34,874 nucleotides of DNA from a bacterium (GTDB taxonomy: Bacteria > Patescibacteriota > Microgenomatia > Levybacterales > UBA12049), in the NCBI GenBank assembly GCA_021820025.1, contig JAKAEF010000001.1:1-34874 (forward strand), given 5' to 3'. Shown here piece by piece: positions 2,997-24,583 of this stretch. Numbering within the stretch: position 1 is the stretch's first letter; every line of letters begins with the position of its first letter. The position numbers and the translations under genes are program-made. The notes beneath the pieces are model-generated. The model worked only from the letters and a program-made list of their open reading frames with translations. It was not told the origin of the DNA and ran no database searches.

Positions 2997-3024
2997 CAAC
3001 CTATCGTAAAGTTGGTAAATTTAC

Positions 3025-3030: not shown

Positions 3031-3037
3031 ACAAGCT

Positions 3038-9460: not shown

Positions 9461-11721
9461 ATATTTGCCACTACTCCAAAAGATTCAATTGTTCCCCCGC
9501 AATATTTTATTATTTTATCACAAGCTTCTTGTAAGCAAGTTTGTACTTCTTCTGGAGATATTGAATATACTCCATCAACATTAAGTAAAATATTTTTTGT
9601 ATGTAATTGAACTGCTGTTCGTTGTGCATCTCTATAATTAAAATCCATATTATATCCGCCATTTTGATCAAAATATGCAATTTCTTTTTCTGTATATGCT
9701 GTTGGTTTTTCATCTCCTAATAAAAGAATTTCTTCCCCGTTTTTTGCAAAGCGAAGAACGGTTGGAAAAGCAATAGTATCTAAATCAAATGCTCCAACAG
9801 AAACTTTGTGTTTCATAACTGTCATATTATATGCATCAACACATGTATTAATGGTATACAAACCTTTACCTAATGCAATTCTTCGCAAAAGCGCTTCAGG
9901 TGATGGTCTTCGTGAATGCCAATCAACTCCCATTTCTTTATATAATTTTCTATAACTTACTACTTCATCAAATTTTCCCAATTCTTCTGTTGTTAAATTT
10001 TGGATTGATGTTAAAAATGCTTGTTTTTCTTTTTCTAATTCTGGATTTGTTTTTTCAATTTGTACTCCTTTAATAACTGCAACTCCAACAGAGATACTTG
10101 GAAATTTTTCAAAAAGATGTTTATCTATAGAAAATATATTTGGGTTATCAAACCTTGTTATTTGTGATTCTTTCGAACTAGCGGTTGCTGTAGGTAAAGC
10201 ACTTACTTCTAAAAATCTATTTTTTACAAAATCTTTATCTAAAGAAAGAATAAGCCATGCTGCTTTTGGACCACTTGTTTTTCCAAGTAAAGAAAGATAA
10301 ATTGCACCAAAAACTTCTCTTCCAGAAATTCCCATTTCTTTTCCCCATTCGTACATATCAAATTGCAATTTTTCTGCATCGGAATAATTGGCTAATTGAT
10401 TTACAACTTTTTGTAAAAATGCTTTTTGTTTTTCTGATAATTCTTTTGCTTTTTCAGGTAATTTTTCTTGGACAACAAATTTATCTTGTTCTGGTGCATA
10501 TTTGTCTACCCAAACTTTTGCGTATGTTGCCCAATTCTCAAGACCCTGTTTTTTTATTTCTTCCTGCATGTTTGGCATTTGTACCCATTGGGCTAAAACA
10601 GAAAAACGAATACTTGGTGGTTTTTGTACTTCTCCAACTTGAGAAAGTTGAAAGGTTCTTGCTAAATCTGCATCTGATTTTCCAAAATATGCATCTGCAC
10701 ATCTCTGATATTCATCGAATAATTGTGGAATAGTATTAGGATTTGATAAATCAAAATTAATTTCACTATTAATTTTTGTTCTTACCATTAAGAATCGCAA
10801 AACTTGTGGAGGTAAAATCTCTAACATATCAGCAGCCGATGCACCAACACCTTTAGATGTAGACATTTTTTGTTTTCCTAAAATAAACCACTCATATGCC
10901 AATGGAAATGGGACAGGATAATTAAATACTCTATCAGAAATTTTTGATGCAACATCATGAGATCCACCTGCTGTCATATGATCTTTTCCTGCTCCTTCAA
11001 CTGTTACACCAATAACTTTCCATTTTGCGGGCCATTCTATTTTCCACGTTAGTTTTCCTACAATTTCTCCATCTCCACTAAATGGAGACATTTTGCCTAT
11101 AAACCCACAGCCTTTGGTAAATTTAACTTTATTCTCTTCACAGGTAAAAGTAATTTGTTCTCCATCCCAATCGGTTACTGTTGTTGTTGAAACTTTTCCA
11201 CAATTTGTGCAGTATGGTTGAAATGGATACCATTTTTCCGGCATTGTTTTTTTATAAATTTCTTCATAAATTTTTTTAATATCATCTGCTTTATCTAATG
11301 CTTCTTTAATTAACGGATTCATTTTTCCGCTTCTATATAAATCTCCTCCCCAAATAATTTCAGGTTCGCTCCCAATAGCATTAAAAACTTTTTTAAAATC
11401 TTCTGCATAATAATGGGCAAAGCTTTTATATCCTTCTTCTGGAGATGGAACTTTAAAAAGTGGCAAACCTAAATATTTTTCAAATTTTTCTTTTGGCAAA
11501 TACACAGGCAATCCATCCATTGGATCCTGGTCTTCAAAAATATAGGTATATTTTGCATTCACACCTATATCTAATAAACATTTATAAATTAAGTCATGAA
11601 TCACCACACCACGCAAACTCCCCACATGAATTTTGCCAGATGGTGTTTTAGCATCATCCACCCATTCCAGTGGTTTATTTCGTTTTTTTATTTCTAGTGC
11701 AATTTGATCTGCCCAAAACAT
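9457..11721 (-). CDS. lysS: class I lysyl-tRNA synthetase fused to a C-terminal B3/4 domain
   Basis: HIGH-type motif KIHVGSLRG. KMSKS-type motif KMSTSKG. The Cys-rich insertion CTNCGK...CEEN..GCG is typical of class I LysRS. Residues ~527-754 match the free-standing B3/4 family pattern (RRPSPEALLRRIALGKGLYTINTCVDAYNMTVMKHKVSVGAFDLD ... FNYRDAQRT). Confidence 0.9.
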   Translation of the reverse strand: MFWADQIALEIKKRNKPLEWVDDAKTPSGKIHVGSLRGVVIHDLIYKCLLDIGVNAKYTYIFEDQDPMDGLPVYLPKEKFEKYLGLPLFKVPSPEEGYKSFAHYYAEDFKKVFNAIGSEPEIIWGGDLYRSGKMNPLIKEALDKADDIKKIYEEIYKKTMPEKWYPFQPYCTNCGKVSTTTVTDWDGEQITFTCEENKVKFTKGCGFIGKMSPFSGDGEIVGKLTWKIEWPAKWKVIGVTVEGAGKDHMTAGGSHDVASKISDRVFNYPVPFPLAYEWFILGKQKMSTSKGVGASAADMLEILPPQVLRFLMVRTKINSEINFDLSNPNTIPQLFDEYQRCADAYFGKSDADLARTFQLSQVGEVQKPPSIRFSVLAQWVQMPNMQEEIKKQGLENWATYAKVWVDKYAPEQDKFVVQEKLPEKAKELSEKQKAFLQKVVNQLANYSDAEKLQFDMYEWGKEMGISGREVFGAIYLSLLGKTSGPKAAWLILSLDKDFVKNRFLEVSALPTATASSKESQITRFDNPNIFSIDKHLFEKFPSISVGVAVIKGVQIEKTNPELEKEKQAFLTSIQNLTTEELGKFDEVVSYRKLYKEMGVDWHSRRPSPEALLRRIALGKGLYTINTCVDAYNMTVMKHKVSVGAFDLDTIAFPTVLRFAKNGEEILLLGDEKPTAYTEKEIAYFDQNGGYNMDFNYRDAQRTAVQLHTKNILLNVDGVYSISPEEVQTCLQEACDKIIKYCGGTIESFGVVANI

Positions 11722-11780
11722 ATGATTTTCTTTCTGATCCTCTTATTTTACCGTATTTTGCAGGATCTAACAAATAAGTC

Positions 11781-12902
11781 TTACTTCTTCTTGGAAGTGA
11801 CAAAGAGGGTAAGGATTTGTTTATAGATTTCTTCAACAAATAAAACAGAATCTACATTGACCCATTCATTTCTGGTATGCCCGCCATTTCCTATTGGCCC
11901 AAGTGCCAAAACAGGAATATTGAGTCTATTTGCAAAAACATTTTCATCTGCAACAGAAGGTGTATAAATTGGTGTAACGTTGTTTTTTGCCAAAATTTCT
12001 TTTTGTAATATTTTTACAAACCAATGACTAAGCGGCATTTCATAACTTTCTCCATATGGCGTGTCTCTTTTTACCGGTTTTATTTCTATATCAATTTTAT
12101 TTTTTTTGGCAACAGCTTGTACTTTTTTAACAAAATCCGTACTTTTTGTTTTTGGTGTTGTAAGAAGTGAAAACTGAGCAACTGTTCTATCTGGAATTGA
12201 GAATGAATCTGTTATTCCAGAAATTGTATGAAAAACAACATCTGTTTCTCCCAGCAATGCATGTTTTGGCAGAGGAATTTGTTTGATAAGACAAAGTAAT
12301 TCTGCCATTTTTTCTATAGCATTGATTCCTTTTTTACCCTCTGCTGCATGTGCTTTTTTCCCAAACACAGTTAACTCAAACAAAATTCTTCCTTTTCTGC
12401 CAAAAACAGCACTAAATGGTTTTGTTACATCTTTTACTTGTCCACTTTCTGCTGCAACTAAAAATGCCACATCTTTTAAAAGACCAGAAGATACTAAGTC
12501 ATGTGCTCCTTTAGAAATATTTTCCTCATCAACACCGAAAATTATTTTTACAGGAAATTTATTTTTAACAGCATATTCGCCAGTTTGTAAAATTGCAGCA
12601 ATACCGCCTTTCATGTCTTCTGTTCCCAAACCCCATGCTTGTTTTCCTTTCATGGTAATTTTATACGGGTTTTTAATATCACTATCTGCCGGAACAGTAT
12701 CCATATGTCCATAAAACCCAAGGTATTTATCTGCTTTTCCATAGGTTGCAATAATGCTGTTTCGTGTTTTATCTGTTGGAACAAGTTTTACAGAAAATCC
12801 AAGCTTTTTTAAATACTCAGCAAGAAATTTACTAATTGCTGCTTCTTGTGGGAATGGGGAAGGGATTTCGACCAGTGTTTTAAATAAATCTAATGTTTTC
12901 AT
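11781..12902 (-). CDS. M20-family metallo-amidohydrolase (ArgE/DapE/CPG2-like)
   Basis: Metal and catalytic motifs are HMDTVP, GTEDMKGG, GVDEEN and a later H...E. An AAGGA Shine-Dalgarno lies inside the end of the upstream gene. The gap to the ATP-grasp stop is 2 nt. Confidence 0.85.
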   Translation of the reverse strand: MKTLDLFKTLVEIPSPFPQEAAISKFLAEYLKKLGFSVKLVPTDKTRNSIIATYGKADKYLGFYGHMDTVPADSDIKNPYKITMKGKQAWGLGTEDMKGGIAAILQTGEYAVKNKFPVKIIFGVDEENISKGAHDLVSSGLLKDVAFLVAAESGQVKDVTKPFSAVFGRKGRILFELTVFGKKAHAAEGKKGINAIEKMAELLCLIKQIPLPKHALLGETDVVFHTISGITDSFSIPDRTVAQFSLLTTPKTKSTDFVKKVQAVAKKNKIDIEIKPVKRDTPYGESYEMPLSHWFVKILQKEILAKNNVTPIYTPSVADENVFANRLNIPVLALGPIGNGGHTRNEWVNVDSVLFVEEIYKQILTLFVTSKKK

Positions 12903-12904
12903 TA

Positions 12905-14392
12905 TTATCCTTCTACTTGTACTTCAACTGTTCCTAATTGTACTCCGTGTTCTTTTTGCAAACGAGTTAGTAATTCTCGTGCTCTCTCTGGAGTTTGGGC
13001 TAATACTAACACTTTTGCATGAGGAGAGGCAATGACTTGTTCTTGCCCATCTTCATCTTCCCCAACGACTGTTCTTGAAGCAAGAACAAGCACGCCTTCT
13101 TTTGTATCTGGGTTATATACCATATCTGGTCCGATACTTTGTGCAAAATCTTCAAAACTTGCAATACCTCTATTTAGAGTAATATTGGTATTTATCCAGT
13201 GTTTTACTCCTAATTTTCTTGCTGCAAAATCTGCATACGTACTAATAATTGGTCTTGTATTTAATTCCAGTGTTCTTACAATTATTTCACCATCTGGTCT
13301 TCGAATAACAACATAATCAGGTCCTTGAATTCCATGATAGCCATTGATGTCTGCATTGTATCTGGCAGTTGCTCTAATTTGGTCATCAATTAATGCCTGA
13401 ATTGCTGGTTCTGGATAATATCTTCTACTACCAACAAAAGACCCGTTTTCTGTAATTTGTTCAAAATGTCCAAGAATTTCAACACTTCCATCTGCTCGAG
13501 ACACACCATGTGCACTACCTAACACTAATACTTCTCCCAAATTTCTTGCATCTTGTTCAATAATTAAACCTGTTCCATAAGGCGCAAAAGTATCTAGAAA
13601 CCAAGAAGCTTCAATATTTCTTTCTTTTCTTAGCTCAGCAGATTCATCAAAACGTGCATGCATTTCTTTAATTGCTTGTCTAAGCGTTGCAGCTGTTACT
13701 CTCTCAATATGCAAAACTGTATCCCCGCCAGAACCACCTGGTAATTTAACCCAAACGCCATGGGGTAAATTGCCAAACTCTGCAACAAGACCATCAATCG
13801 CGTCTTGTGTAACTTCTCCACTTACTATTCTTCCTGGCATCATATTAATACCAAATTCTGCAGCATGTTCTCGTAAATCTTGTTTGTTATTTGTTAAATC
13901 ACTACTTGGAGTATCTAAAGTTGGCATACCAAGTTGTTCTGCTTGCGCACGTACAGCATCACCAATAATTGTTGGAAGTAAGACAGAAGTTCTGGTATCT
14001 CTTCGCATACTCCCATCATTAACTCGCGCTGCCATTCTTTCCAAAACATCACCATGTGGGAATGGATAAGGATTTGCTAAATCTCCATTTTCAACTCTAT
14101 GTGGCACTTCAATTAATTGACCTGGTTGTAAAATACCAATTTGTTCATAATGCTCTCGTAAACCTCCAAAAAGTTTTGGGGTAATAGCTACTTCTCCAGG
14201 ACCTGCAACAAACAAAGATAAATACCCTAAGTACGCATCACCATACGGTTCTGGAAGAATCGTAAATCTTTCTGGATTAACAAAATTTGCAGCGTGAGTT
14301 GGCACTCGATCAATATGATCTGCGCCATTTCTTTGTCCATTAACCGTTAATGCACCCAATGCGGGTGCTTCTTGTCTTGCTTGCATTGCCAT
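12905..14392 (-). CDS. ATP-grasp family carboxylate-amine ligase with an N-terminal pre-domain, substrate unknown
   Basis: 495 aa. ATP-grasp signatures occur in canonical order: VWVKLPGGSGGDTV (Lys plus Gly-rich loop), LIIEQDA (hinge) and RTLELNTRP (E-x-N Mg site). About 200 aa precede the first motif and about 110 aa follow the last. Composition is K-poor and R-rich. Confidence 0.75.
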   Translation of the reverse strand: MAMQARQEAPALGALTVNGQRNGADHIDRVPTHAANFVNPERFTILPEPYGDAYLGYLSLFVAGPGEVAITPKLFGGLREHYEQIGILQPGQLIEVPHRVENGDLANPYPFPHGDVLERMAARVNDGSMRRDTRTSVLLPTIIGDAVRAQAEQLGMPTLDTPSSDLTNNKQDLREHAAEFGINMMPGRIVSGEVTQDAIDGLVAEFGNLPHGVWVKLPGGSGGDTVLHIERVTAATLRQAIKEMHARFDESAELRKERNIEASWFLDTFAPYGTGLIIEQDARNLGEVLVLGSAHGVSRADGSVEILGHFEQITENGSFVGSRRYYPEPAIQALIDDQIRATARYNADINGYHGIQGPDYVVIRRPDGEIIVRTLELNTRPIISTYADFAARKLGVKHWINTNITLNRGIASFEDFAQSIGPDMVYNPDTKEGVLVLASRTVVGEDEDGQEQVIASPHAKVLVLAQTPERARELLTRLQKEHGVQLGTVEVQVEG

Positions 14393-14424
14393 AAGAATTA
14401 CATGTTTGACTTAAAACCTTGTAA

Positions 14425-14452
14425 ATTATACCTATTTATTGAAGCGTGTCAA
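14425..14452 (-). promoter_or_regulatory. perfect consensus sigma70-type promoter upstream of the ATP-grasp ligase gene
   Basis: The minus strand reads TTGACA (14452-14447), a 16-nt spacer, then TATAAT (14430-14425). The ATG lies 32 nt downstream of the -10 box, at 14392. Confidence 0.6.
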
Positions 14453-14469
14453 CTATTTATAAGAATTTG

Positions 14470-14489
14470 ACAAATTTAACCAAATTTGT
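14470..14489 (-). terminator. AT-rich hairpin after the HDAC-type gene (weak terminator candidate)
   Basis: The minus strand reads ACAAATTT-GGTT-AAATTTGT, a perfect 8-bp stem starting 8 nt after the stop. The downstream tail is only moderately T-rich. Confidence 0.3.
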
Positions 14490-14496
14490 TTGTTTT

Positions 14497-15450
14497 TTAA
14501 CAAAAAGAAAGCCCTTTAACCAAACTCCAAGCTATATCTCCTAAATCTGAGACAAAATACCCTCCTTCTTGGATAACCAAGGTGGGAAGTTGTAATGAGG
14601 CAATTTGCAAACCAATTTCTTTATAAAATGGAATTGTAAGTTTAAATGCTGCAATCGGATCTTTAATGTAGGTATCAAAACCTGCAGAAATAACTAAGAA
14701 ATTTGGATTAAATTTTTTAATATTTTTTATAGCTTGTTGTAATGTTTTTTTATACAAGATTTCTGATGCATCTACAGGAAGTGGATAATTAATATTAAAT
14801 CCGACTCCATCTGCAATTCCCGTTTCTTCTTTAAATCCAGTTATATAAGGATATTTTTCCCTTGGATCTGCATGCAGAGAAACATATAAAATATCATCTC
14901 TGTCATAAAACATTTGTTGAGTTCCATTACCGTGGTGGTAATCAATATCTAAAATTGCAACTTTCCCTTTTGCAGATAAATATTCTGCGGCAACTGCAGC
15001 ATTATTTATATAACAATATCCACCCATATTATATGCACCGGAATGATGTCCAGGAGGTCTGCACAAAGCATATATTAATTTTTCACCGTTTTCTAAAAGT
15101 TCTGCTCCGGTTAATGCAATATCTGCAGATTCTTTTGCTGCAACAAATGTATCTTTTGTCATTGGGGCGTAGGTATCTGTTGTAAAATATGATGCAAAAA
15201 AATTGTCTGTTGGTTTTAAGGATTTAGATTTATTTTTTAAAAATTCTATGTAATTCTTATGATGTACTTTTTCTACATGAGAAATTGGGAATGATTTTGG
15301 TGCAATAAATTCTCCTGCGTTTTCTTGTCTAAATTTTTTAGCAATAATTTCTATTCTCTCTGGAACCTCTGCGTATGGAGCTTGTTGCATGTCATATACT
15401 TCGTATGCTGGATTATGTAATTTGTGTTTGGATGAATAAATAATTTTCAT
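14497..15450 (-). CDS. HDAC-family Zn-dependent deacylase (acetylpolyamine amidohydrolase / AcuC-like)
   Basis: The full set of family motifs is present: CRPPGHH, ILDIDYHHGNGTQ, SAGFDTY and QEGGY. The gap to the upstream orphan gene is 1 nt. Confidence 0.9.
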   Translation of the reverse strand: MKIIYSSKHKLHNPAYEVYDMQQAPYAEVPERIEIIAKKFRQENAGEFIAPKSFPISHVEKVHHKNYIEFLKNKSKSLKPTDNFFASYFTTDTYAPMTKDTFVAAKESADIALTGAELLENGEKLIYALCRPPGHHSGAYNMGGYCYINNAAVAAEYLSAKGKVAILDIDYHHGNGTQQMFYDRDDILYVSLHADPREKYPYITGFKEETGIADGVGFNINYPLPVDASEILYKKTLQQAIKNIKKFNPNFLVISAGFDTYIKDPIAAFKLTIPFYKEIGLQIASLQLPTLVIQEGGYFVSDLGDIAWSLVKGLSFC

Positions 15451-15451
15451 A

Positions 15452-16630
15452 TTAATTTGTCCCAGTTAATTCTAACACTGTTTGGACTGCTGATCTAGAG
15501 TACATTTGTTTTCTTCTTTCTTCATTAAATGGTAAATACATCCACAAAAATGATCTATAAAGAGTTGGTAGTTCGCGTCTTCCATCGTCTACTTTTACGT
15601 TGCCAAACAACGTTTGAAGAGGAAAATCTTCTCTCCCTGTTATTTCTTCATCTAATGGTCTTGGGATAGTTAGCCCGCTTTTTCTAGCATTAATTGGAGC
15701 TCCATTTACTGTATTACATTCTGCAAAAATTACTGGATTTCTATTTCCACAATCATGCTCTACTTGAGCAATTAAATGAATAATTGCTGCTTCCATTGAT
15801 TCATTTCGTGGAACAAGAGACAAAAACTCTGTTAATTCAACAAGCCGCACACTTTCTCCGTTACCAATAGGTAAATCTAATGCTTCAGCCTTTGCAGCAG
15901 CGACAAGATTTCCATTATTATCAGTTATTGCAGACAACCATTCATTTTTTGCTTCTCTTGGCAATTCTCTTTCTGCTTCTAATCTCTGTTGCATTGCTGC
16001 CACATCACCAGTTTGCCAGCCAAATCTAATTCCCCACCAGTATTCCAATTGTTGTTCCAGAGTTTGTCCCTCATCATTTCTAACATCTGCATCTACCATA
16101 TGATGGTACGAGTATTTTGATGCTATGGCACGCTCTGTTCTTGTTACCGAATGTATTGTATCTTTAGCTAACACTTCTGCTGTTTTTGCTGGAATTTCAC
16201 TCGGTGTTATAGGAGTTTGGCGCTGTTCTCCGTTTTGTCCGAAAACGACATAATACAGTTGAGATTCCCCAAGATGAGCAGGAACAGCAACAGCAACTTC
16301 TAACGTAGAACATGCATCGGGACTTGTAGACGACATATTAACAAGTGCTTCTTGTGTTACTAACGCTCGCACCATTGTCCTACCAACTTCAGGATGAGGC
16401 AAAAGTTCTCGTAAACCATGTACGCCATTAACAAGCTCCGATAACTCTGCAGCACCTGCAATAGCATGATCTGGGGTATACATAAGCCTGTCAAAACTAC
16501 GTAGATCAAGTCCCAATGCGCCGGTACTAGTTGCAGCATCAATCCGCCTATCTGCAACCTCCCGCATTTGGGCTTGTAATTGTTCTCTTATTGGAGCTGT
16601 AGATTGTTGTGCTAATTCTTGTTGAACCAT
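15452..16630 (-). CDS. orphan 392-aa protein, possibly with a degenerate GNAT-like core in the C-terminal half
   Basis: The ATG at 16630 is preceded by GAAGGAAGGA-N5 and by a TTGACT-16-TACAAT promoter. Composition is K-poor and R-rich. I recognised no catalytic motif. Residues ~225-345 show a GNAT-like strand/helix order (VIFAECNTVNGAPINARKSGL). Confidence 0.7.
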   Translation of the reverse strand: MVQQELAQQSTAPIREQLQAQMREVADRRIDAATSTGALGLDLRSFDRLMYTPDHAIAGAAELSELVNGVHGLRELLPHPEVGRTMVRALVTQEALVNMSSTSPDACSTLEVAVAVPAHLGESQLYYVVFGQNGEQRQTPITPSEIPAKTAEVLAKDTIHSVTRTERAIASKYSYHHMVDADVRNDEGQTLEQQLEYWWGIRFGWQTGDVAAMQQRLEAERELPREAKNEWLSAITDNNGNLVAAAKAEALDLPIGNGESVRLVELTEFLSLVPRNESMEAAIIHLIAQVEHDCGNRNPVIFAECNTVNGAPINARKSGLTIPRPLDEEITGREDFPLQTLFGNVKVDDGRRELPTLYRSFLWMYLPFNEERRKQMYSRSAVQTVLELTGTN

Positions 16631-16662
16631 AAAAATCCTTCCTTCGGTAAAGGGTAAAGCTT

Positions 16663-16690
16663 ATTGTACCTGAAGCTAATTCAAAGTCAA
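16663..16690 (-). promoter_or_regulatory. promoter for the orphan-392/HDAC operon
   Basis: The minus strand reads TTGACT (16690-16685), 16 nt, then TACAAT (16668-16663). The GAAGGAAGGA Shine-Dalgarno follows at ~16645-16636. Confidence 0.5.
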
Positions 16691-16703
16691 TTTTTTATAA
16701 AAT

Positions 16704-16732
16704 TTGATAAAAATAACACTATATGTTAAAAT
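16704..16732 (+). promoter_or_regulatory. promoter for the ACT-domain gene, with leaderless geometry
   Basis: TTGATA (16704-16709), 17 nt, then TAAAAT (16727-16732). Only 6 nt separate the -10 box from the ATG at 16739, and there is no Shine-Dalgarno. Confidence 0.5.
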
Positions 16733-16738
16733 CTTAAC

Positions 16739-17386
16739 ATGATCACAGTACCTGAGGCTACACGCAAAGTTATAGAACGTTCACGCTACCTGGCAGAGGC
16801 TATGAGTAAGGGGCTTATTAATTACTCTTCTTTAGCCCGCTATATTAAGCCAGAACTTGAACAAATGCTTGTTAAAAATGTCAGTGAATCATCTATTATT
16901 ATGGCTTTAAAAAGGCTTGAACCTTATTTTCAACCAAAATATAAACATGTTACTGTTTTCCAAAATCCTCCAGAAATGATTGTGAGATCAAATCTAGTTG
17001 AAATAACTGTTGCGAATTCTGAAGAAATGACAAAAAAATTACCTCAAATTATGGCAGTTTACGCGAATCAGCAAAAATACTACTTTACCATTACAGAAGG
17101 AGTATCAGAAACAACTATTATTGCAAGCCATGATTTGTTTGATAAAATCAAAACAATTTTAAATGGAGAAAAAGTAGTTGAAACATATGTTGATCTTTCT
17201 TCTATCACAATTAGACTCCCTAAAGAAGTTTTAGAATCTCCCGGAATTTTTTACTTTTTCTTAAAAAGTCTGGCATGGGAGGGGATAAATATTATAGAAA
17301 TCGTTTCAACCTATTTGGAATTTACCATAATTTTAGAAGATAAAAACGTAAACAAAGCATTTGCAATTCTTAAATCTCTTTTTTAA
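16739..17386 (+). CDS. ACT-domain protein with a helical N-terminus (putative ligand-sensing regulator)
   Basis: The C-terminal PGIFYFFLKSLAWEGINIIEIVSTYLEFTIILEDKNVNKAFAIL is an ACT-like beta-alpha-beta-beta-alpha-beta unit. The gene is divergent from the orphan/HDAC operon. Confidence 0.6.
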   Translation: MITVPEATRKVIERSRYLAEAMSKGLINYSSLARYIKPELEQMLVKNVSESSIIMALKRLEPYFQPKYKHVTVFQNPPEMIVRSNLVEITVANSEEMTKKLPQIMAVYANQQKYYFTITEGVSETTIIASHDLFDKIKTILNGEKVVETYVDLSSITIRLPKEVLESPGIFYFFLKSLAWEGINIIEIVSTYLEFTIILEDKNVNKAFAILKSLF

Positions 17387-20118
17387 ATTTGTTTTTCTTG
17401 CAATTTTTGGTGTTCTTTCATTAAGCAAAAATCAGAAACAATAGTGACATTATGTTCTCTTGCATAATTTTCTGCTTTTGTATTTCTTACTCCTTCTGGT
17501 AACCAAATTGTTTTTATTCCTTTTTTAATTGCCTCTTCAACATGTGGAAATACTTCTTCTGATCTTCTATAAATTGCAACCATATCTACTGACTTTTCAA
17601 TTTCTAATAAATTTTTATATGCTTTTTCTCCTAACACTTCTCCAATTGCTGGATTAACAGGAACAATAGAAAATCCTTTTGATTGTAAATAAATACCAAC
17701 CTTATGACTGTATCTGTCTGGATCCTGAGAAATTCCAACAATTGCAATTGTTTTTGCTTTTTGCAAAACATTTAATTGGATTGCATCATCTAATGGATTA
17801 TTTTGTATATCAAAATGCCATTCTTCTAATTCTATTGGATCAACTCCATATTCTGTTATGTAAGCCAAATGTTCTTCCAAAGCATTTTTGTAATGATCAA
17901 TTATTTTTTTTGCTTTTTCTAAAGAAATTACTTTTTGTTTTTCCATTTTTTCAATTATTTCTATTGCTAAATGATATCTACTTGTTTTATTTCTCATATG
18001 CATATCAAAAGGTGTTGTTGTCCCACCCAATTCTAAATATCCATGAACAGAAAATCTTTGAGGATTTTTTATGTGGAAAAATATTGACTCCAAATCTTCA
18101 GGATATCCATGATAATTTACAATAACAGGTTTATCGGAAGTAAAATATTTTTCTGCATTTGGAATCTGATTTTTTTGTTGATCTCGTCCTGACAAGCGAA
18201 CAATATTTACAAAGCGAATCTTAATTTCCGGTGCTACAACTTTTACCATTTCTAAAGCAGCCATTGCTTCCTTTGTTACATAGTCCCCAACTCCCGCAAT
18301 AACAATGTCAGGGTTTTCATCACTTGCAAATTCCCAAATTAAAAGTCCGTCTTCCAAAGATTTTTGTGCTTGTTGTAACGTAAGCCATCTTGGTTCTATA
18401 GTTTTACCAGCAACAATTGCATTAATACCATTTGTTGATGCTAATGTTTCGTCTAAAACTGCAAGCATACTATTGTCATCAACAGGGAAATAAACTTTTA
18501 TTTTGTCATCATGTTTTTCTAAAAGTGAACTGACAAATGATGGATTCTGGTGCGTAAATCCATTGTGTTCTTGTCTCCATAAAACTGAAGAAAGCATGTA
18601 ATTTATAGATGCATATGGTCCCCGCCATGAAAGAGTTCTGGCAACTTTTAAAAACTTTTCATATTGATGCGTCATGCTGGAAAAAATTTGTGCAAATGCT
18701 TCATAAGTTGTAAATACAGCATGTCGTCCTGTTAAAATATATCCTTGGGCTAACCCATGTAAATTAGTTTCTGATAACATTTCCATAACTCTTCCATCTT
18801 GTGTCATATCTTTATCGTCTTTACTAATTGGCCAAACAAATGCTCTGCTTGTCTCTTTAAAAACAGTATCCAGTCTGTTGGAGTATGTTTCGTCAGGAGA
18901 CATAAGACGAAAATTATTTTTATTTAATGCAAAAACTTGTTGCAAATATTCACCAGCTTTTTTCATGCTGTTAGATCCCAATTTCCCGGGAACTTCAAAT
19001 TTTGTTTCTAAATTTTCTGTTTTTGGAAGAATTAATTTTTTAAAAAAATTTTTACTGTATGCATGAGGATTATTTCCAATTCTCAACTTTTCTTCAGGAA
19101 GAATATTAAAAATTTCTTTTGAAAATCCTTTATCTTTAGAAAAAACATCATTAAACTTATAAGAAGTTAGCCAATCTTCAATTGCCTCTAACTCATATTC
19201 ATCTTTTCTTGCATTTGGAGCAACAACTTGATGTGCTAAAATATTTCCTTCAATTTTTTTCTTATTTAATTCTTTTATTCCAGTCCATCCTTTTGCTGTC
19301 TGTAAAATAATCATTGGAAATTTAGGAGAAACAATTTTTTTGCCTGAACGCGCATCTTTTTGAATTTTTTTAATTTTTGCTAAACAAGTATCTAATGTTT
19401 TTACCATGTCTTCATAAATATGTTCTCCTGTAACAAAAAATGGTTCATATCCATATCCTTCAAAAAGATCTGATAACTCTTTATTAGACATGCGACCAAA
19501 GATTGTTGGACCAGAAATTTTATAGCCATTCACGTGCAATATAGGCAAAACTGCACCATTTATTGCAGGATCTATTAATTTATTTATATGCCAGCTAGAA
19601 GCAATAGGTCCAGTTTCTGCTTCTCCATCTCCAATCATACAAACAGCTAATAAATCTGGATTATCTAAAACAGCTCCATATGCAGTTCCTAAGGAGTAAC
19701 CTAACTCTCCACCTTCTAAAATTAATCCGGGCGCCTCAGGATTACTGTGACTTGATACACCATATGGCCAACTAAAAATTTTTGAAACCCAGGCAATCCC
19801 TTTTTCATCAAGAGTTGCTTCTTTGTAGTATTTCTCTAGTGTTCCTTCTAAGAATAAATTTGCCTGAAGTGCAGGAAATCCATGACCAGGTCCTAAAACA
19901 AACATGGTAGAAACTTCATGTTTTTTTACAAAATATTGTAAATTTGCATAAACAAAATTTATCCCTGGACATGTTCCCCAATGTCCAAACAAGCGTTGTT
20001 TAATATCTTTGCTAGATAGTTTTTCAGATAATAAATAATTATCTTTTAAATAAATTTGTGTTACTGTCAAATAATTTGCAGCACGAACATACGCTTTAAT
20101 TGCAGAAATATCATTCAT
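17383..20118 (-). CDS. xfp: xylulose-5-P/fructose-6-P phosphoketolase fused to a C-terminal CoA-binding (YccU/CoA_binding_2-like) domain
   Basis: Phosphoketolase motifs GHWGTCPG, EGGELGYSL and GDGEAETGP (ThDP site) are present. Length is 911 aa. The last ~139 aa (KTIAIVGISQDPDRYSHKVGIYLQSKGFSIVPVNP...VDMVAIYRRSE...IKTIWLPEG) match the small Rossmann CoA-binding family. Confidence 0.88.
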   Translation of the reverse strand: MNDISAIKAYVRAANYLTVTQIYLKDNYLLSEKLSSKDIKQRLFGHWGTCPGINFVYANLQYFVKKHEVSTMFVLGPGHGFPALQANLFLEGTLEKYYKEATLDEKGIAWVSKIFSWPYGVSSHSNPEAPGLILEGGELGYSLGTAYGAVLDNPDLLAVCMIGDGEAETGPIASSWHINKLIDPAINGAVLPILHVNGYKISGPTIFGRMSNKELSDLFEGYGYEPFFVTGEHIYEDMVKTLDTCLAKIKKIQKDARSGKKIVSPKFPMIILQTAKGWTGIKELNKKKIEGNILAHQVVAPNARKDEYELEAIEDWLTSYKFNDVFSKDKGFSKEIFNILPEEKLRIGNNPHAYSKNFFKKLILPKTENLETKFEVPGKLGSNSMKKAGEYLQQVFALNKNNFRLMSPDETYSNRLDTVFKETSRAFVWPISKDDKDMTQDGRVMEMLSETNLHGLAQGYILTGRHAVFTTYEAFAQIFSSMTHQYEKFLKVARTLSWRGPYASINYMLSSVLWRQEHNGFTHQNPSFVSSLLEKHDDKIKVYFPVDDNSMLAVLDETLASTNGINAIVAGKTIEPRWLTLQQAQKSLEDGLLIWEFASDENPDIVIAGVGDYVTKEAMAALEMVKVVAPEIKIRFVNIVRLSGRDQQKNQIPNAEKYFTSDKPVIVNYHGYPEDLESIFFHIKNPQRFSVHGYLELGGTTTPFDMHMRNKTSRYHLAIEIIEKMEKQKVISLEKAKKIIDHYKNALEEHLAYITEYGVDPIELEEWHFDIQNNPLDDAIQLNVLQKAKTIAIVGISQDPDRYSHKVGIYLQSKGFSIVPVNPAIGEVLGEKAYKNLLEIEKSVDMVAIYRRSEEVFPHVEEAIKKGIKTIWLPEGVRNTKAENYAREHNVTIVSDFCLMKEHQKLQEKQI

Positions 20119-20130
20119 AATTTATTTTCT

Positions 20131-21885
20131 TTAATAATCCTCAAGAGTAGAGGTATCACCTTCAGGAAGACCTAATTCCCTAGATTTTAATAAGCGGCGC
20201 ATAATTTTGCCCGAGCGGGTTTTAGGAAGTTTATCTATAAATTCTATTTCCCGTGGATATGCATGGCCTGCCAAATGTTGTTTTACATACGCCATAATTC
20301 TCTTTTTTGTTTCTTCATTTTTTTCAACGCCTGGTTTTACAACAACAAAGGCTTTAATAATTTCTCCACGTAACTCATCTGGTTTTCCAATAACTCCTGC
20401 TTCTATAACATCTTCATGTTCGACAAGTGCACTTTCAACTTCAAACGGACCTACACGTTCTCCAGATGTTTTTATAACATCATCTGCTCGTCCAACAAAC
20501 CAAAAATACCCATCTTTATCTTTAAATGCTTTATCTCCAGACAAATACCATCCATTTCTAAAGTATGAATCAAATTTTTCTTTATTTCCCCAAATTTGTT
20601 TCATTAAAGAATAAATTGTTTCCGGCTTTAGTGCTAAATGTCCTTCTTCTCCAACAGGTACTTCTTTCCCATCTTCATCAATTACTGCTGCGATAACACC
20701 TGGGAGTGGCTTTCCCATACTGCCTGGCCTAACATCCATAACAGAATAATTTGTTACGGTTATTGATCCTTGTTCTGTTTGCCACCACGTATCATGGAAT
20801 GGTAATCCAAATGCTTCTAACCCCCACCAAATTGCTTCAGGATTTAATGGTTCACCAACACTGGCCAAAAATCGAAGATTTGATAAGTTATATTCCTTTG
20901 GAGAAACAGGAGATCCCATAAGCATTCTAATTGCAGTTGGGGCTGTATACCAAACAGTTACTTGGTAATCTTGCAAAACTTTGTACCAATTTTCGGGAGA
21001 AAATCTTCCTTCAAAAATTACAGAAGTTGCTCCCAAACCAAACGGACCTAATGCTCCATAGACAACTCCTGTTACCCAGCCTAAATCCGCTGTACACCAA
21101 TAAATATCATCTTCGTGTACATCTAAAACAAATTTTGTTGTTACCATTGCCTGTACAATATCTCCATGTGCATGCACAACACCCTTTGGTTTTCCTGTTG
21201 TTCCAGAGGTATAGAGCATGTAAGAAAGATCTTCTTTTTGCATATGAGCAATTGCAAAATCTGCAGAAGCTTTTTCCATTTCATGTTTATAATAAATAAG
21301 ATTTTCTCCTTTGGGTTGATCAACAGATCCTCTTTCTACAATAATTACTTTTTCAAGTGCAGGTAAATCTTTCCAGATTTTTTGAATTCTTGGAAAAAGA
21401 GTTGCATTGGTAACAACAACCTTTGCTCCACTATCTAATAAGCGATCCATTAATGCCATTTCCATAAATGCGGAGAATAATGTTCCTGCAATTGCACCAA
21501 GTTTTAAGATGCCAAAAAAAACAACTAATCGCTCAGGAATTGTTGGTAAGAAAATAAAAACTCTATCTCCTTTTTGTACTCCATGCAAATCTAAAACATT
21601 AGCAAATTTATTTGTTAAATCTTTTAATTGGCCATAGGTATATGTTTCTTTTTCACCAGTTGCACTTTCAAATAAAAGTGCATTTTTAGAAGCACTTTTT
21701 CCGATAGCATGTCTGTCAATTGCAATATAAGAAGCATTTAAAGTTCCGTCTTCAAAAAAATCTAAATATTCTTTTTCTGCTTTTTTCCATGTAAACTCTT
21801 TATAGGTTTTTTCGTAATCAGAAAGGTTTGGTTTTTTAACAAATTTTTTGGGGTCTTTGTGAATTATATTTGCACCTGTATTCAT
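20131..21885 (-). CDS. acs: AMP-forming acetyl-CoA synthetase / acyl-CoA synthetase
   Basis: The AMP-binding motif is YTSGTTGKPKGV, and the A10 motif is LPKTRSGKIMRR. I prefer the start at ATG 21885. The listed TTG start at 21933 lies inside a TTGACA -35 box. Confidence 0.88.
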   Translation of the reverse strand: MNTGANIIHKDPKKFVKKPNLSDYEKTYKEFTWKKAEKEYLDFFEDGTLNASYIAIDRHAIGKSASKNALLFESATGEKETYTYGQLKDLTNKFANVLDLHGVQKGDRVFIFLPTIPERLVVFFGILKLGAIAGTLFSAFMEMALMDRLLDSGAKVVVTNATLFPRIQKIWKDLPALEKVIIVERGSVDQPKGENLIYYKHEMEKASADFAIAHMQKEDLSYMLYTSGTTGKPKGVVHAHGDIVQAMVTTKFVLDVHEDDIYWCTADLGWVTGVVYGALGPFGLGATSVIFEGRFSPENWYKVLQDYQVTVWYTAPTAIRMLMGSPVSPKEYNLSNLRFLASVGEPLNPEAIWWGLEAFGLPFHDTWWQTEQGSITVTNYSVMDVRPGSMGKPLPGVIAAVIDEDGKEVPVGEEGHLALKPETIYSLMKQIWGNKEKFDSYFRNGWYLSGDKAFKDKDGYFWFVGRADDVIKTSGERVGPFEVESALVEHEDVIEAGVIGKPDELRGEIIKAFVVVKPGVEKNEETKKRIMAYVKQHLAGHAYPREIEFIDKLPKTRSGKIMRRLLKSRELGLPEGDTSTLEDY

Positions 21886-21904
21886 AATTTGGTAGATCGT
21901 GGTT

Positions 21905-21933
21905 ATAGTAACAAGGTTTCTTTTATCTGTCAA
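21905..21933 (-). promoter_or_regulatory. promoter for the acs-xfp transcription unit
   Basis: The minus strand reads TTGACA (21933-21928), 17 nt, then TACTAT (21910-21905). The ATG lies 19 nt further on, at 21885. Confidence 0.45.
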
Positions 21934-21964
21934 TTTGTTATAGATCTATCACAAATAAACAATA

Positions 21965-21984
21965 TTTGTTAAAAATTTAACAAA
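21965..21984 (-). terminator. AT-rich hairpin between GNAT and acs (weak terminator candidate)
   Basis: The minus strand reads TTTGTTAAA-TT-TTTAACAAA, followed by TATTGTTTATTTG. It lies between the GNAT stop (21999) and the acs promoter. Confidence 0.3.
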
Positions 21985-21998
21985 AAATGTAATATGTT

Positions 21999-22529
21999 TT
22001 ATAACTGTCTAACTAATGTAGATACACCAGGAACATATTGAGATCTAACCTGAAATCCTCGATGCAACAATGCTTGTTCTGATACTGCATTTTCTGGTTG
22101 CGCCTTTATTGTTGAATATCCTGCTTCTTTTGCAGCAAAACAAAGCCGCTCTACTAATTGACTCATTATACCTATTTGTCTAAATTTAGGAGCAATATAA
22201 ATATCTTCTAATACTGCTTCTGTTCTTGGCTCTCCAGCGATTGCACCTGAATAAAATCCATATCCTACAATATTTCCTCTGTTATCTCTGACAAGTTCTA
22301 TTAAATAATCTCTCTGATCTTCTATAAAACTACCAATTAATGCAGCTGTAGCATCTGTTTCTTGATGTAAAGTTGCTTTCCTACGAAAACGTTCACCCGC
22401 TGCTCGAGCATGTTCTCCTGCCCAATTAGTTCTCAATCTACCAATTTCCGTTACTACTCTTTGCGTTTCTGGATCTATATCTCTAGATTGTAACTGTGAA
22501 TAATCAATTATTCCGTATCTTTCGCGCAT
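21999..22529 (-). CDS. GNAT-family N-acetyltransferase (K-poor/R-rich)
   Basis: The GNAT core is NIVGYGFYSG...VLEDIYIAPKFRQIGIMSQLVERL...AKEAGYSTIKA...A...LHRGF. The first ATG is at 22529; the listed 22550 start is TTG. This is the last gene after coaBC and pantoate kinase. Confidence 0.8.
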   Translation of the reverse strand: MRERYGIIDYSQLQSRDIDPETQRVVTEIGRLRTNWAGEHARAAGERFRRKATLHQETDATAALIGSFIEDQRDYLIELVRDNRGNIVGYGFYSGAIAGEPRTEAVLEDIYIAPKFRQIGIMSQLVERLCFAAKEAGYSTIKAQPENAVSEQALLHRGFQVRSQYVPGVSTLVRQL

Positions 22530-22543
22530 ATTTGTATTATATA

Positions 22544-23350
22544 TTAACAAATTAAAAATTGTTGAGACCCTGCAAATGGTATATTACTAAACACTCCATT
22601 TCCAAGCATTATCATAGAAGCAACTCCGCCTTTATTTTCTATTTCTTGAATTGTTTGTATAACTTCTTGATCTTGCAATAACCCACTAGTCGTAGCAAAT
22701 TCTTTTGAAATAGTAATGACATTTTCTAATGTTATTTTTTTCTCTTTATAAAGAGCATCAATTTTTTCAATTGCTGTTTTTCCAGCAACATCAATTTTTT
22801 CTTTTATTACTGGATTTTGAATAACAGATTTTGTTTCAAGTGTACTAAAAAATCGACAATAAATTGGAATATTTGCTATTGGTAAATGTATAACTTTAAA
22901 CAGATAACTAGGATCTTTTTTCAGTAAAAATCCTCCAAAATATTCATTTGTTATATCTCCCAGCCCTGTTCCGTTTTCTACTTCTGCAATATGAGAAAGC
23001 TTTGCCAACTCTATTTTTCCTTTTTGTAAATTAAGTAAATCATTTATTGCATATGCTGTTGCAAGTGTTGCTGCCCCGCTTAATCCAAATCCTCCGCCAA
23101 GTGGTAAATCAGAAATAATTGAGACTTCTAATGGTATGTCTGTTAACTTTTTTATAACAGATAAAACGGGACCAATATGTATTTCTTTTTTGTTTAAAAA
23201 AATTTTTGTATTTGCAGCTTTTGCAACTGTTGCCGTTGCTCCCTTAGATATTGTAAATCCAACACCCGTTGAACCTGTTGTTTCAGGTGTTTCTCCTTTA
23301 TGAATTCTAAAAATACAAGAAATATTTCCGGGAGCAAATGCTGTTGTCAT
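22544..23350 (-). CDS. GHMP-family kinase, archaeal-type pantoate kinase candidate
   Basis: The GHMP phosphate-binding loop is DLPLGGGFGLSGAATLA. The HIAEVENGTGLGDI motif fits my memory of the archaeal pantoate kinase family. Its start overlaps the coaBC stop (ATGA at 23347-23350). Confidence 0.6.
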   Translation of the reverse strand: MTTAFAPGNISCIFRIHKGETPETTGSTGVGFTISKGATATVAKAANTKIFLNKKEIHIGPVLSVIKKLTDIPLEVSIISDLPLGGGFGLSGAATLATAYAINDLLNLQKGKIELAKLSHIAEVENGTGLGDITNEYFGGFLLKKDPSYLFKVIHLPIANIPIYCRFFSTLETKSVIQNPVIKEKIDVAGKTAIEKIDALYKEKKITLENVITISKEFATTSGLLQDQEVIQTIQEIENKGGVASMIMLGNGVFSNIPFAGSQQFLIC

Positions 23351-24543
23351 AATACATTTTCAATTATTTTTTGTGCAATTTGTTGTTTTGTATTTAGAGG
23401 AATATGTATCTCTTCTCCTGTATTTTTTAATATATATACTTCATTGGTATCAACTAAAAATCCTGTTTTTTCTCCAACTACATTTGCAACAATTGCAAAA
23501 ATATTTGTTTGTTTTAATCGTTGTTTTGATTTTATTAGTAAATTTTGAACTGTTCCTGTTTCTGCTTTAAATGCAATTACCTTTACATTTTTATTCCATA
23601 ACATAATTTTTGATAGTATTTTTTCTTTAGGAATTAATTTTAAAATCATCTCTTTGTCTGAAGAAATTTTTCCATTAAATTTTTCTACTGAAAAATCAGC
23701 AACAGCTGCAGCATGAAAAACAATGTCAGTATTTTTAACTTCTTTTTGTAAAATTTCTTCTAATTCGTCTGCTGTTTCAAAAATAAGTTGCTTTATATTG
23801 TATTTTGGTTCTACAGAATTTTTAGCACGAATTATTGTTACATCTGCTCCTTGTAAAAAACATTCTTCCGCCAATGCTACTCCCATTTTCCCAGAAGATT
23901 TATTAGAAATAAATCGAACATCATCTATATATTCTTTTGTTCCGCCAGATGTTACTACAATTTTTTTCCCTTTTAATTTAGTTGATTTAGAAACTATAGA
24001 AGTAATCTCATTTATAATTACATCTAAATTTGCCAATCTTCCTTGCCCTTCATATCCGCATGCCAACATTCCAGAATCGGGATTAATAATAATATATCCA
24101 AGCGTTTTTAATTTCTTTATATTCTCTTGTGTAGCAGGATGATGCCACATATGCACATTCATGGAGGGGCAAACAATAATAGGGCAGGTTGCTGCCAACA
24201 CTGTTGTCGTTAAGTAATCATCCGCAATTCCATTTGCCAATTTTGCAATTATATTTGCAGTTGCTGGAGCAATAACAATTGCTTGAGCATTTCCAGCAAT
24301 TTGAATGTGTTCAACTTTTCTCTCTTGAAGAATCTTTTTTGTATTAATCGGTTTGTCAAACAAATTAGCAAAAACTTCTATCTTATTTTCTTTTTTAATT
24401 TTTTCAGGAGAAATCATTTCAGATGCTCCAGAAGTCATAATAACAACAACATTAATATTTTTTTGTTGCAGTTTTGTAATTATTTCCTGAGCTTTTACAA
24501 CAGCTATTCCTCCAGATAATCCTAGTATTACTTGCTGTTTCAT
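23347..24543 (-). CDS. coaBC: bifunctional phosphopantothenoylcysteine decarboxylase / phosphopantothenate-cysteine ligase
   Basis: The N-terminal flavoprotein part has GLSGGIAVVKA and PATANIIAKLANGIADDYLTT. The C-terminal CoaB part has VTSGGTKEYIDDVRFISNKSSGKMG. Confidence 0.93.
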   Translation of the reverse strand: MKQQVILGLSGGIAVVKAQEIITKLQQKNINVVVIMTSGASEMISPEKIKKENKIEVFANLFDKPINTKKILQERKVEHIQIAGNAQAIVIAPATANIIAKLANGIADDYLTTTVLAATCPIIVCPSMNVHMWHHPATQENIKKLKTLGYIIINPDSGMLACGYEGQGRLANLDVIINEITSIVSKSTKLKGKKIVVTSGGTKEYIDDVRFISNKSSGKMGVALAEECFLQGADVTIIRAKNSVEPKYNIKQLIFETADELEEILQKEVKNTDIVFHAAAVADFSVEKFNGKISSDKEMILKLIPKEKILSKIMLWNKNVKVIAFKAETGTVQNLLIKSKQRLKQTNIFAIVANVVGEKTGFLVDTNEVYILKNTGEEIHIPLNTKQQIAQKIIENVL

Positions 24544-24552
24544 AATAGGGGT

Positions 24553-24582
24553 ATTGTATCAATTTGTAAGTATAAGAGGCAA
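24553..24582 (-). promoter_or_regulatory. extended -10 promoter for the coaBC / pantoate kinase / GNAT operon
   Basis: The minus strand reads TTGCCT (24582-24577), 18 nt, then TGA-TACAAT (-10 at 24558-24553). The ATG at 24543 is 9 nt after the -10 box. Confidence 0.45.
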
Positions 24583-24583
24583 A

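Follow-up and report, generated by a model that had tools for sequence, protein, structure and literature searches.

Lysine-poor, arginine-rich predicted amide-forming enzymes with hydrolase partners beside a lysyl-tRNA synthetase gene in a Patescibacteria bacterium

Why should a few enzymes of an AT-rich bacterium contain so little lysine and so much arginine, when the hydrolases encoded immediately downstream of two of them are rich in lysine? This question is raised by contig JAKAEF010000001.1 of assembly GCA_021820025.1, of which we analyzed positions 1 to 34,874 of the forward strand (34,874 nucleotides, hereafter the window). The window encodes two adjacent two-gene units, an ATP-grasp ligase with an M20 metallohydrolase and a GNAT-fold protein with a deacetylase of the histone deacetylase (HDAC) family, in addition to a separate small GNAT. 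It has a GC content of 32%, and the presence of SecA, GreA and VanW assigns it to a bacterium, the closest named relative being a Patescibacteria metagenome-assembled genome (MAG) with protein identities of 86-95%. The lysine depletion with arginine replacement looks like an old, selected and family-wide property of the ATP-grasp and GNAT-fold families, and it belongs to the amide-forming, energy-consuming member of each of the two conserved units. The five genes are as follows.

11781-12902, minus strand: M20 metallohydrolase, DapE/ArgE/LysK-like and lysine-rich, downstream partner of the ATP-grasp gene (Pfam, PDB matches)
12905-14392, minus strand: lysine-poor ATP-grasp amide ligase, predicted to be of the PGM1/LdmS/BesA-like L-amino-acid-ligase type (AlphaFold2 and Foldseek, motifs)
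14497-15450, minus strand: predicted ApaH-type (acetylpolyamine amidohydrolase) deacetylase of the HDAC family, normal in lysine, downstream partner of the GNAT-fold gene (PF00850, PDB matches, motifs)
15452-16630, minus strand: lysine-poor protein of 392 residues, first taken for an orphan, predicted to be a divergent GNAT-fold acyltransferase (AlphaFold2 and Foldseek, Pfam matches of its family)
21999-22529, minus strand: lysine-poor small GNAT of 176 residues, between the pantoate kinase and acetyl-CoA synthetase genes (Pfam)

The imbalance had been noticed in a sequence-only reading from hand counts, and our recount gave identical numbers. The ATP-grasp ligase has 10 K and 35 R in 495 residues (K/(K+R) of 0.22), the GNAT-fold protein 8 K and 29 R in 392 residues (0.22), and the small GNAT, the lowest of the three, 4 K and 19 R in 176 residues counted from its ATG (0.17). 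By contrast, the M20 hydrolase has 45 K and 7 R in 373 residues (0.87) and the HDAC 28 K and 5 R in 317 residues (0.85). The other 27 window open reading frames (ORFs), each of at least 150 residues, served as the composition background; with ratios of 0.55-0.92 they are indeed lysine-rich. Against the pooled background K fraction of 0.744, one-sided binomial tests gave p = 3.7e-13 for the ATP-grasp ligase, 2.8e-11 for the GNAT-fold protein and 1.7e-8 for the small GNAT. Proteins in the rest of the window contain about 32 lysines on average, compared to 10, 8 and 4 in the three outliers. Lysine at 0.24-fold and arginine at 2.6-fold of the rest of the window make up the main amino-acid shift, whereas A, G, Q and E, already reported as abundant, are each only modestly up (1.2-1.4-fold), and F and I are down. 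The codons of Q, E and R lie one base away from the lysine codon AAA. The surplus G+C of the three genes resides only in codon positions 1 and 2 (GC1 0.51-0.59, GC2 0.42), whereas their GC3 of 0.136-0.214 falls within the window range of 0.115-0.329. Synonymous codon fractions of the three genes correlate with those of the rest of the window at r = 0.964, with AGA at 63% versus 57% of the arginine codons. The long antisense ORFs reported at 13032-13316 and 13770-14069 are present in the ORF list and are treated as a by-product.

Homologues were searched in an index of 5.8 billion proteins, which returned six matches for the ATP-grasp ligase, four for the GNAT-fold protein and two for the small GNAT, the window's own entries being counted for the latter two. 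Genome and metagenome scans gave 24 further loci, of which 23 were analyzed; the metagenome loci of the GNAT-fold family came from a scan with a narrow alignment, and 13 of them were analyzed. Individual loci are designated below by L numbers.

The ATP-grasp protein is a predicted amino-acid ligase of the PGM1/LdmS/BesA type. The window protein has no match in Pfam, and against the NCBIfam BesA model NF042917 it scores 16 bits, far from the cut-off of 750. Its AlphaFold2 model, with a predicted local distance difference test score (pLDDT) of 72.6 and a predicted template-modelling score (pTM) of 0.73, best matches 8ynd, 3wvq (PGM1), 7r8q (LdmS) and 8yi6 (BesA) in Foldseek, at E-values of 2e-15 to 1e-12 and template-modelling scores on the target of 0.61-0.71, in agreement with the three-domain ATP-grasp fold. 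It carries the ATP-binding WxK motif as WVK214-216 and the Mg-binding ExN motif as ELN376-378, and the residues K215, E375, N377 and R379 are invariant in the family alignment A1. The only lysines retained by the family are K169, K215 of the WxK motif, and K459.

The M20 gene lies directly downstream of the ATP-grasp gene in all 13 loci, with M20 identities of 47-59%. In the window the M20 ATG follows the ATP-grasp stop after only 2 nt and the HDAC ATG follows the GNAT-fold stop after 1 nt, which confirms the translational coupling suggested earlier. The M20 protein matches the catalytic Peptidase_M20 (81 bits) and dimerization M20_dimer (57 bits) families of Pfam. All its NCBIfam scores are below the cut-offs, those of LysK and DapE included; the best is PRK08588 (150.6 bits versus 289), and the DapE-ArgE model TIGR01910 reaches 142.8 versus 217.6. 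Its nearest PDB entries are ArgE, DapE and LysK (5xoy). Upstream of this unit lies a candidate control region.

14425-14489, minus strand: putative promoter of the ATP-grasp/M20 unit, consensus sigma-70-like (TTGACA-16-TATAAT), with a palindrome upstream

This 12/12 promoter match is the sole one in 11700-24700. Upstream of the -35 box, at a distance of 18 nt, the perfect 8+4+8 palindrome ACAAATTTAACCAAATTTGT at 14470-14489 is unique in the window and may serve as an operator or as the terminator of the HDAC gene. An operator shared by the lysine-poor genes was considered and rejected, as the palindrome is not repeated upstream of the GNAT-fold or small GNAT genes and matches with up to three mismatches occur at chance level. 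As a separate observation, the ATP-grasp gene of locus L001 (7133-8672) is a pseudogene with a frameshift near residue 290 and an in-frame stop, whereas the downstream M20 gene is intact; the ligase is dispensable in that lineage.

The supposed orphan belongs to a GNAT-fold family with 142 cluster representatives and is a divergent member, a predicted acyltransferase. A Pfam search of the window protein itself gave no match, whereas 13 of 40 family members match Acetyltransf_9 (best E-value 5e-9) and 6 of 40 match Acetyltransf_1. Its AlphaFold2 model (pLDDT 90.6) contains a GNAT domain that Foldseek relates to NAA60, RimI, SpeG and GNA1 at probabilities of 0.9-1.0, with weak E-values of 4e-4 to 6e-3; these matches span about 200 of 391 residues, and the acyltransferases of this type have two domains and 330-390 residues. 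The acetyl-CoA loop (Q/R-x-x-G-x-G/A) reads QRGKGLG in the L012 homologue and is degenerate in the window protein, where RNESMEA is aligned to it. The family has no conserved lysine at all.

Its partner is predicted to be an ApaH-type deacetylase. It matches PF00850 with 241 bits, and its best PDB matches are the acetylpolyamine amidohydrolases 9gkz (259 bits), 3q9b (237 bits) and 6phr (235 bits), ahead of HDAC6 (190 bits). The motifs of ApaH cluster 4 are RPPGHH, EGGY and P-I-S, and the class acts on acetylated diamines and on acetyl-lysine (PMC11532494). The window protein carries RPPGHH131 and EGGY295, with PIA265 where PIS is expected; RPPGHH and EGGY are kept in all 11 HDAC homologues checked (L012 and ten metagenome loci). 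An HDAC homologue lies downstream of the GNAT-fold homologue in L003, L012 and 10 of the 13 metagenome loci, and in the remaining three the latter sits at or near the end of the available stretch. Both two-gene units occur together in the window, L012 and L005, whereas close relatives have a single unit at the same site, ATP-grasp/M20 in L001 and GNAT-fold/HDAC in L003. Two loci stand apart. Directly after the ATP-grasp/M20 unit, L005 has an ORF of 134 residues (2668-3072) that matches only the C-terminal half of the GNAT-fold family (VESTEW...AECN...YMYLP): either the copy is truncated or its start was called wrongly. On the 47% GC contig L027 (310-2303), the GNAT-fold homologue has 1 K and 35 R and the HDAC 1 K and 30 R, compared to 17 K and 18 R in the next gene; it is the only locus in which the hydrolase is lysine-depleted as well.

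The small GNAT matches Acetyltransf_1 and Acetyltransf_7 of Pfam, and its nearest PDB entries are weak matches that include diamine, thialysine and polyamine acetyltransferases (2bei, E-value 0.0025; 8a9o, E-value 0.0055). It has only two close, near-identical relatives, among them the L009 orthologue, and the syntenic locus L001 lacks the gene. In hhalign it showed no homology to the GNAT-fold family (probability 0.1%), and among the proteins predicted in 30 related loci its only homologue is the L009 orthologue. The earlier suggestion that it forms one system with the ligase and the GNAT-fold protein therefore finds no support, as close relatives gain and lose the units independently of one another. 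Its lysine poverty may have the cause discussed below or one of its own; nothing ties the small GNAT to the locus.

Is the composition a trace of foreign origin or a trait in its own right? In both families the orthologues in other hosts proved lysine-depleted as well: homologues at 24-41% identity, from hosts of 30-52% GC, are equally lysine-poor, every index homologue has a K/(K+R) of 0.15-0.39, and the median of the GNAT-fold family is 0.23. In the 13 ATP-grasp loci (host GC 34-52%) the ligase stays at 0.22-0.42, whereas M20 follows its host over 0.39-0.87. Regressed on host GC, the lysine content of M20 falls by 4.2 points per 10% GC (r = -0.83), whereas that of the ligase is flat. In the GNAT-fold family, F, Y, M, I and N (FYMIN) track host GC as they do in the HDAC partner, but K remains low, averaging 2.8%. 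Relative to local background, lysine is down by 4.6 points in the ligase and 5.5 points in the GNAT-fold protein, whereas the hydrolases have host-like K and R in nearly all loci (M20 +1.0 points, p = 0.03; HDAC -1.3 points, not significant). The idea of lysine-enriched "erasers" was dropped on these last figures. New basic residues tell the same: at sites that are non-basic in distant homologues the window ligase has acquired 23 R and 6 K (23 of 29 Arg), compared to 1 R and 13 K (1 of 14 Arg) at such sites of M20, and R-to-K exchanges between homologues amount to 5.6% in the ATP-grasp family versus 14.9% in M20. A wider sample comprised 119 proteins of at least 150 residues from AT-rich loci, centered on the studied families and including no whole genome. 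Only 13 of these have a K/(K+R) below 0.35, and all 13 are ATP-grasp, GNAT-fold-family, small GNAT or class II lysyl-tRNA synthetase proteins, or one protein of 216 residues beside a lysyl-tRNA synthetase gene.

These data bear on two explanations that need no selection on lysine. The sequence-only reading had proposed that the genes were imported from a donor of higher GC and have since ameliorated, mostly at synonymous sites, in accordance with raised GC1 and GC2 beside a host-like GC3, with the general rise of Gly, Ala, Arg and Pro (GARP) and fall of FYMIN plus K (FYMINK), and with the accessory, patchy occurrence of the units. However, homologues in AT-rich hosts at 24-41% identity are just as lysine-poor, codon use is the same as the host's, lineage-specific basic residues are arginines, the FYMIN residues of the GNAT-fold family, unlike K, have come into equilibrium with the host, and the co-inherited hydrolases have the composition of the host. 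Had whole units been transferred, the two genes of a unit could not differ in every host, one of foreign and the other of native composition; import is therefore rejected for the ATP-grasp and GNAT-fold genes, and as a general explanation it is extremely improbable; for the small GNAT, with its two near-identical relatives, it is conceivable, and the codon use of that gene gives it no support. Alternatively, an arginine-rich composition might be inert and simply constrained, for example by fold or solubility, and K, R, FYMIN and G, A and P of the ligase are all flat against host GC. Yet the lysine-poor enzymes have diverged more rapidly than their partners (pairwise identity averaging 36% for the ligase versus 51% for M20; 24-33% for the GNAT-fold protein versus 42-57% for the HDAC), and their lysine poverty is thus neither frozen ancestry nor simple conservation. 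Mean FYMIN contents of the ligase and M20 are equal (20.0% versus 20.5%), so the difference between the two lies specifically in K and R. Moreover, the other residues of the GNAT-fold family follow the host whereas K does not, and the trait is common to several unrelated families in the same loci, all of which makes an inert composition distinctly unlikely.

What these loci have in common points to lysine. Two further genes flank the units in the window.

9457-11721, minus strand: class I lysyl-tRNA synthetase (LysRS) with B3_4 fusion, lysine-rich, immediately downstream of the two units (tRNA-synt_1f, B3_4, TIGR00467 at 362 bits)
16739-17386, plus strand: divergently transcribed gene of an aspartokinase-type ACT-domain protein of 215 residues, putative amino-acid sensor (profile and Pfam matches)

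A LysRS gene adjoins one or both units in at least 11 loci. The adjoining enzyme is of class I in the window, L001, L003, L008, L010, L013, L018 and L026, and of class II in L010, L013, L014, L016, L020 and L030, with a further class II copy about 4.5 kb off in L012; the order of LysRS and the units varies between loci. The class II enzymes of L010, L012, L013, L014 and L020 are themselves lysine-poor (K/(K+R) 0.23-0.37), and in L010 and L013 such an enzyme lies beside a lysine-rich class I LysRS, whereas the class II enzymes of housekeeping appearance (L016 and L030) have normal lysine. Directly upstream of the lysine-poor class II genes, L010 (7671-8294) and L020 (3401-4051) encode homologous lysine-poor proteins of 207 and 216 residues (26% identity, E-value 2e-14), and in both loci an aspartokinase gene (K/(K+R) 0.43-0.47) is adjacent. 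The ACT-protein profile A6 matches the ACT domain of aspartokinase 3l76 at an E-value of 1e-6, and in Pfam ACT_7 is found in six of six family members and ACT_9 in four of six. In seven loci, an ACT homologue adjoins either the ATP-grasp gene (L001, L009, L015 and L017) or the GNAT-fold gene (L003, L021 and L023). As for the synthetase itself, the B3_4 domain of the window enzyme is C-terminal and has a PheRS-beta editing-type fold; the class II LysRS of L016 (12525-14693) has a similar C-terminal extension, and the fusion therefore occurs on both LysRS classes in genomes of the Candidate Phyla Radiation (CPR). Between the phosphoketolase and ACT genes, L009 (7024-9245) holds a Zn-dependent dehydrogenase and a class I/II aminotransferase, neither of which is present in the window; this site is an accessory-gene hotspot.

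We tentatively propose, and slightly favor, that translation of the lysine-poor enzymes has to remain possible under a shortage of charged tRNA-Lys. The proteome of this organism is 9-12% lysine, and under limitation a protein with 8-10 lysine codons would be completed whereas one with about 45 would not. While lysine is limiting, the substrate of the ligase and the acyltransferase would be lysine itself or a lysine-like amine; once the supply returns, the hydrolases would cleave the bond again. The linkage to LysRS, ACT protein and aspartokinase, together with a lysine-poor back-up LysRS, would be predicted by lysine scarcity and not by avoidance of self-acylation. A "catch-22" or low cognate bias of this kind is known for amino-acid biosynthetic enzymes (PMC4209129), and the hmrA (M20)/ldmS (ATP-grasp ligase) operon of Staphylococcus aureus, which is under the control of methionine-limitation regulators, offers a precedent (PMC9486568). 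An extension of the proposal, which we consider quite unlikely, is a "lysine rheostat", in which the availability of charged tRNA-Lys would set the ratio of maker to breaker and, through it, how much of an acylated lysine-like metabolite or protein mark is present. Such a device could work through a lysine-poor maker coupled over 1-2 nt to a hydrolase that is normal or high in lysine and whose frame begins with M-K, and it would require no dedicated riboswitch; the lysine-poor back-up LysRS and the ACT sensor would then belong to the same starvation circuit of lysine-hungry, auxotrophic CPR bacteria.

Several observations weigh against lysine scarcity as the cause. The lysine content of the coupled hydrolases lies at or slightly above background, which is awkward if the whole operon is needed in starvation. 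All residue classes of the ligase, and not K alone, stay flat as host GC changes. The small GNAT, with the least lysine of the three, sits in a CoA/acetate operon with no evident link to lysine, and the background sample consists of about 100 proteins picked around the studied loci, with no genome among them. No lysine riboswitch or T-box was detected with Rfam gathering thresholds in the window and nine loci, or at E <= 1 in 11700-22700, and lysine-responsive regulation is something that we infer. Finally, all three proteins are amine acylators, as directly predicted if such enzymes avoid modifying themselves, the second explanation put forward in the sequence-only reading.

According to that explanation, the enzymes' own lysines would be pseudo-substrates, and hence replaced by arginine, of a ligase working via an acyl-phosphate or of GNATs working via acyl-CoA, the acceptors being free lysine, diamines, polyamines or protein lysines. 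Hydrolases at background lysine are predicted by this explanation alone, as they need no protection, and are explained better by it than by scarcity. The retention of only K169, K215 and K459 in the ATP-grasp family and of no conserved lysine in the GNAT-fold family points the same way, as does the weak resemblance of the small GNAT to diamine and thialysine acetyltransferase structures. The partner of the GNAT-fold protein is of the ApaH type, a class active on acetylated diamines and acetyl-lysine (PMC11532494), and lysine-free regions that avoid modification are documented for the ubiquitin and Pup systems (PMC10169902, PMC10665810). On the other hand, the depletion runs along the whole chain (about 2% K) and is not local to the active site, and the window enzymes that handle activated acyl groups or lysine, namely acetyl-CoA synthetase, phosphoketolase, class I LysRS and the LPG_synthase_C protein, are lysine-rich. 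Nor is lysine poverty known as a general feature of GNATs. A broader rule that enzymes with activated acyl groups avoid lysine was rejected, given the lysine-rich acetyl-CoA synthetase, phosphoketolase, class I LysRS and seryl-tRNA synthetase. The sequence-only reading was right in invoking selection on lysine and in assigning the three proteins to amine-acylating types, but self-modification leaves the lysine-poor class II LysRS, the proteins of 207 and 216 residues and the partly depleted aspartokinase unexplained. As the cause it appears somewhat unlikely; the two causes are not mutually exclusive, and scarcity is slightly favored. A further alternative casts the units as effector-immunity or toxin-antidote pairs, in which a lysine-poor toxin acylates lysines or amines of a host, a competitor or the producer and the hydrolase is the antidote. 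A toxin free of lysine would be immune to itself, and in accordance with such a role the units have a fixed two-gene layout in which the "writer" evolves fast and the "eraser" more slowly, are unevenly distributed among close relatives, with a pseudogenized copy in L001, occur in episymbiotic CPR lineages and a Bdellovibrionota MAG, and in L027 have both partners nearly free of lysine. However, PADLOC gave no match for six proteins, the translations inspected by eye, with no predictor run, showed no obvious signal-peptide-like N-terminus, nothing points to toxicity, and the recurrent link to LysRS and the ACT protein would be left unexplained. We therefore regard this alternative as very unlikely.

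If lysine poverty does mark proteins made when lysine runs out, composition alone could flag starvation-response genes in uncultivated CPR bacteria, whose regulation is almost unknown. It would also offer a first clue to the function of two widespread units that adjoin LysRS and have no annotation, ATP-grasp/M20 and GNAT-fold/ApaH. Should avoidance of self-acylation be the cause instead, the "lysine desert" principle would be widened from ubiquitin and Pup to bacterial small-acyl transferases. Under either cause, co-inherited partners followed across host GC make selection on one residue type separable from mutational bias and horizontal transfer.

Elsewhere in the window, a phosphoketolase (XFP_N/XFP/XFP_C) with a C-terminal CoA_binding_2 fusion is encoded at 17383-20118 on the minus strand, beside acetyl-CoA synthetase, and is kept in L001 and L009. 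A stand-alone LPG_synthase_C protein, of the aminoacyl-tRNA-dependent lysyl-transferase type and lacking the membrane flippase part, is encoded at 24584-25582 on the minus strand, about 13 kb from the LysRS gene. In another locus, the 47% GC Saccharibacteria contig L011, the first 2.3 kb (1-2316) have a GC content of 64-66% and include an ORF of 219 residues with 0 K and 22 R; this GC-rich start may stem from chimeric assembly or from an insertion of recent date. The segment 22544-27168 on the minus strand of the window encodes a coenzyme A pathway of archaeal type in a bacterium, in which no phosphopantothenate synthetase was recognized within the window.

22544-23350, minus strand: pantoate kinase
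23347-24543, minus strand: CoaBC
26176-27168, minus strand: PPAT-like cytidylyltransferase fused to DUF359

A literature search for lysine-poor acetyltransferases or for effects of lysine starvation on LysRS composition returned nothing specific, and five known systems invite comparison. In S. aureus, hmrA and ldmS encode an M20 amidohydrolase and an ATP-grasp L-aspartate-L-methionine ligase in one operon (PMC9486568), a pairing like that of the window, and in each case the genomic context ties the pair to one amino acid, methionine there and lysine here. They differ in gene order and in the DapE/ArgE-like nature of the window M20, and sequence similarity is marginal, the A1 profile of the window ligase matching 7r8p at an E-value of 0.19. 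The link is made by S-box and CymR sites there and by LysRS and ACT neighbors here, and no compositional bias is reported for LdmS. According to the discussion in PMC4209129, Alves and Savageau (2005) described low cognate amino-acid bias in starvation-response and biosynthetic enzymes, and in Chlamydia, Up-Trp and Down-Trp proteins have Trp-dependent translation profiles (PMC3937554). The window proteins resemble such cases in having few residues of the scarce amino acid and in clustering with LysRS, an ACT sensor and aspartokinase. However, the depletion here is about fourfold, far above the usual statistical trend, none of these proteins is a known enzyme of lysine biosynthesis, and their co-transcribed partners are not depleted.

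The lysine deserts of ubiquitin and Pup systems (PMC10169902, PMC10665810) likewise concern proteins at risk of modification from which lysine has been selected out, the lysine-less state being conserved. There the context is conjugation and proteasomal degradation of proteins with disordered stretches, whereas whole enzymes with arginine compensation are affected here, and no gene for lysine-directed protein tagging was found in the 35-kb window. GNATs of the SpeG/SSAT type together with ApaH (PMC11532494) recall the GNAT-fold protein beside a deacetylase with RPPGHH and EGGY. The window acyltransferase differs in its two-domain build, the lack of a Pfam match of its own and a degenerate acetyl-CoA loop. 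To our knowledge, a fixed acyltransferase-ApaH operon linked to LysRS has not been described. In the LysW-mediated lysine pathway (LysX/LysK), as in ArgA/ArgE, an amide-forming "protecting" enzyme works with an M20 "deprotecting" hydrolase, and the link to lysine is shared, with LysK (5xoy) among the PDB matches of the window M20. Nevertheless, the window lacks LysW, LysZ, LysY and LysJ, and its ATP-grasp ligase is PGM1/LdmS-like rather than RimK/LysX-like. Lysine biosynthesis by protection and deprotection was rejected, the window having no kinase, reductase or aminotransferase partner and its M20 scoring below the curated cut-offs. Altogether, it is the combination of a fourfold, arginine-compensated lysine depletion, a hydrolase partner of normal composition and a linkage to LysRS that sets this locus apart from all five systems.

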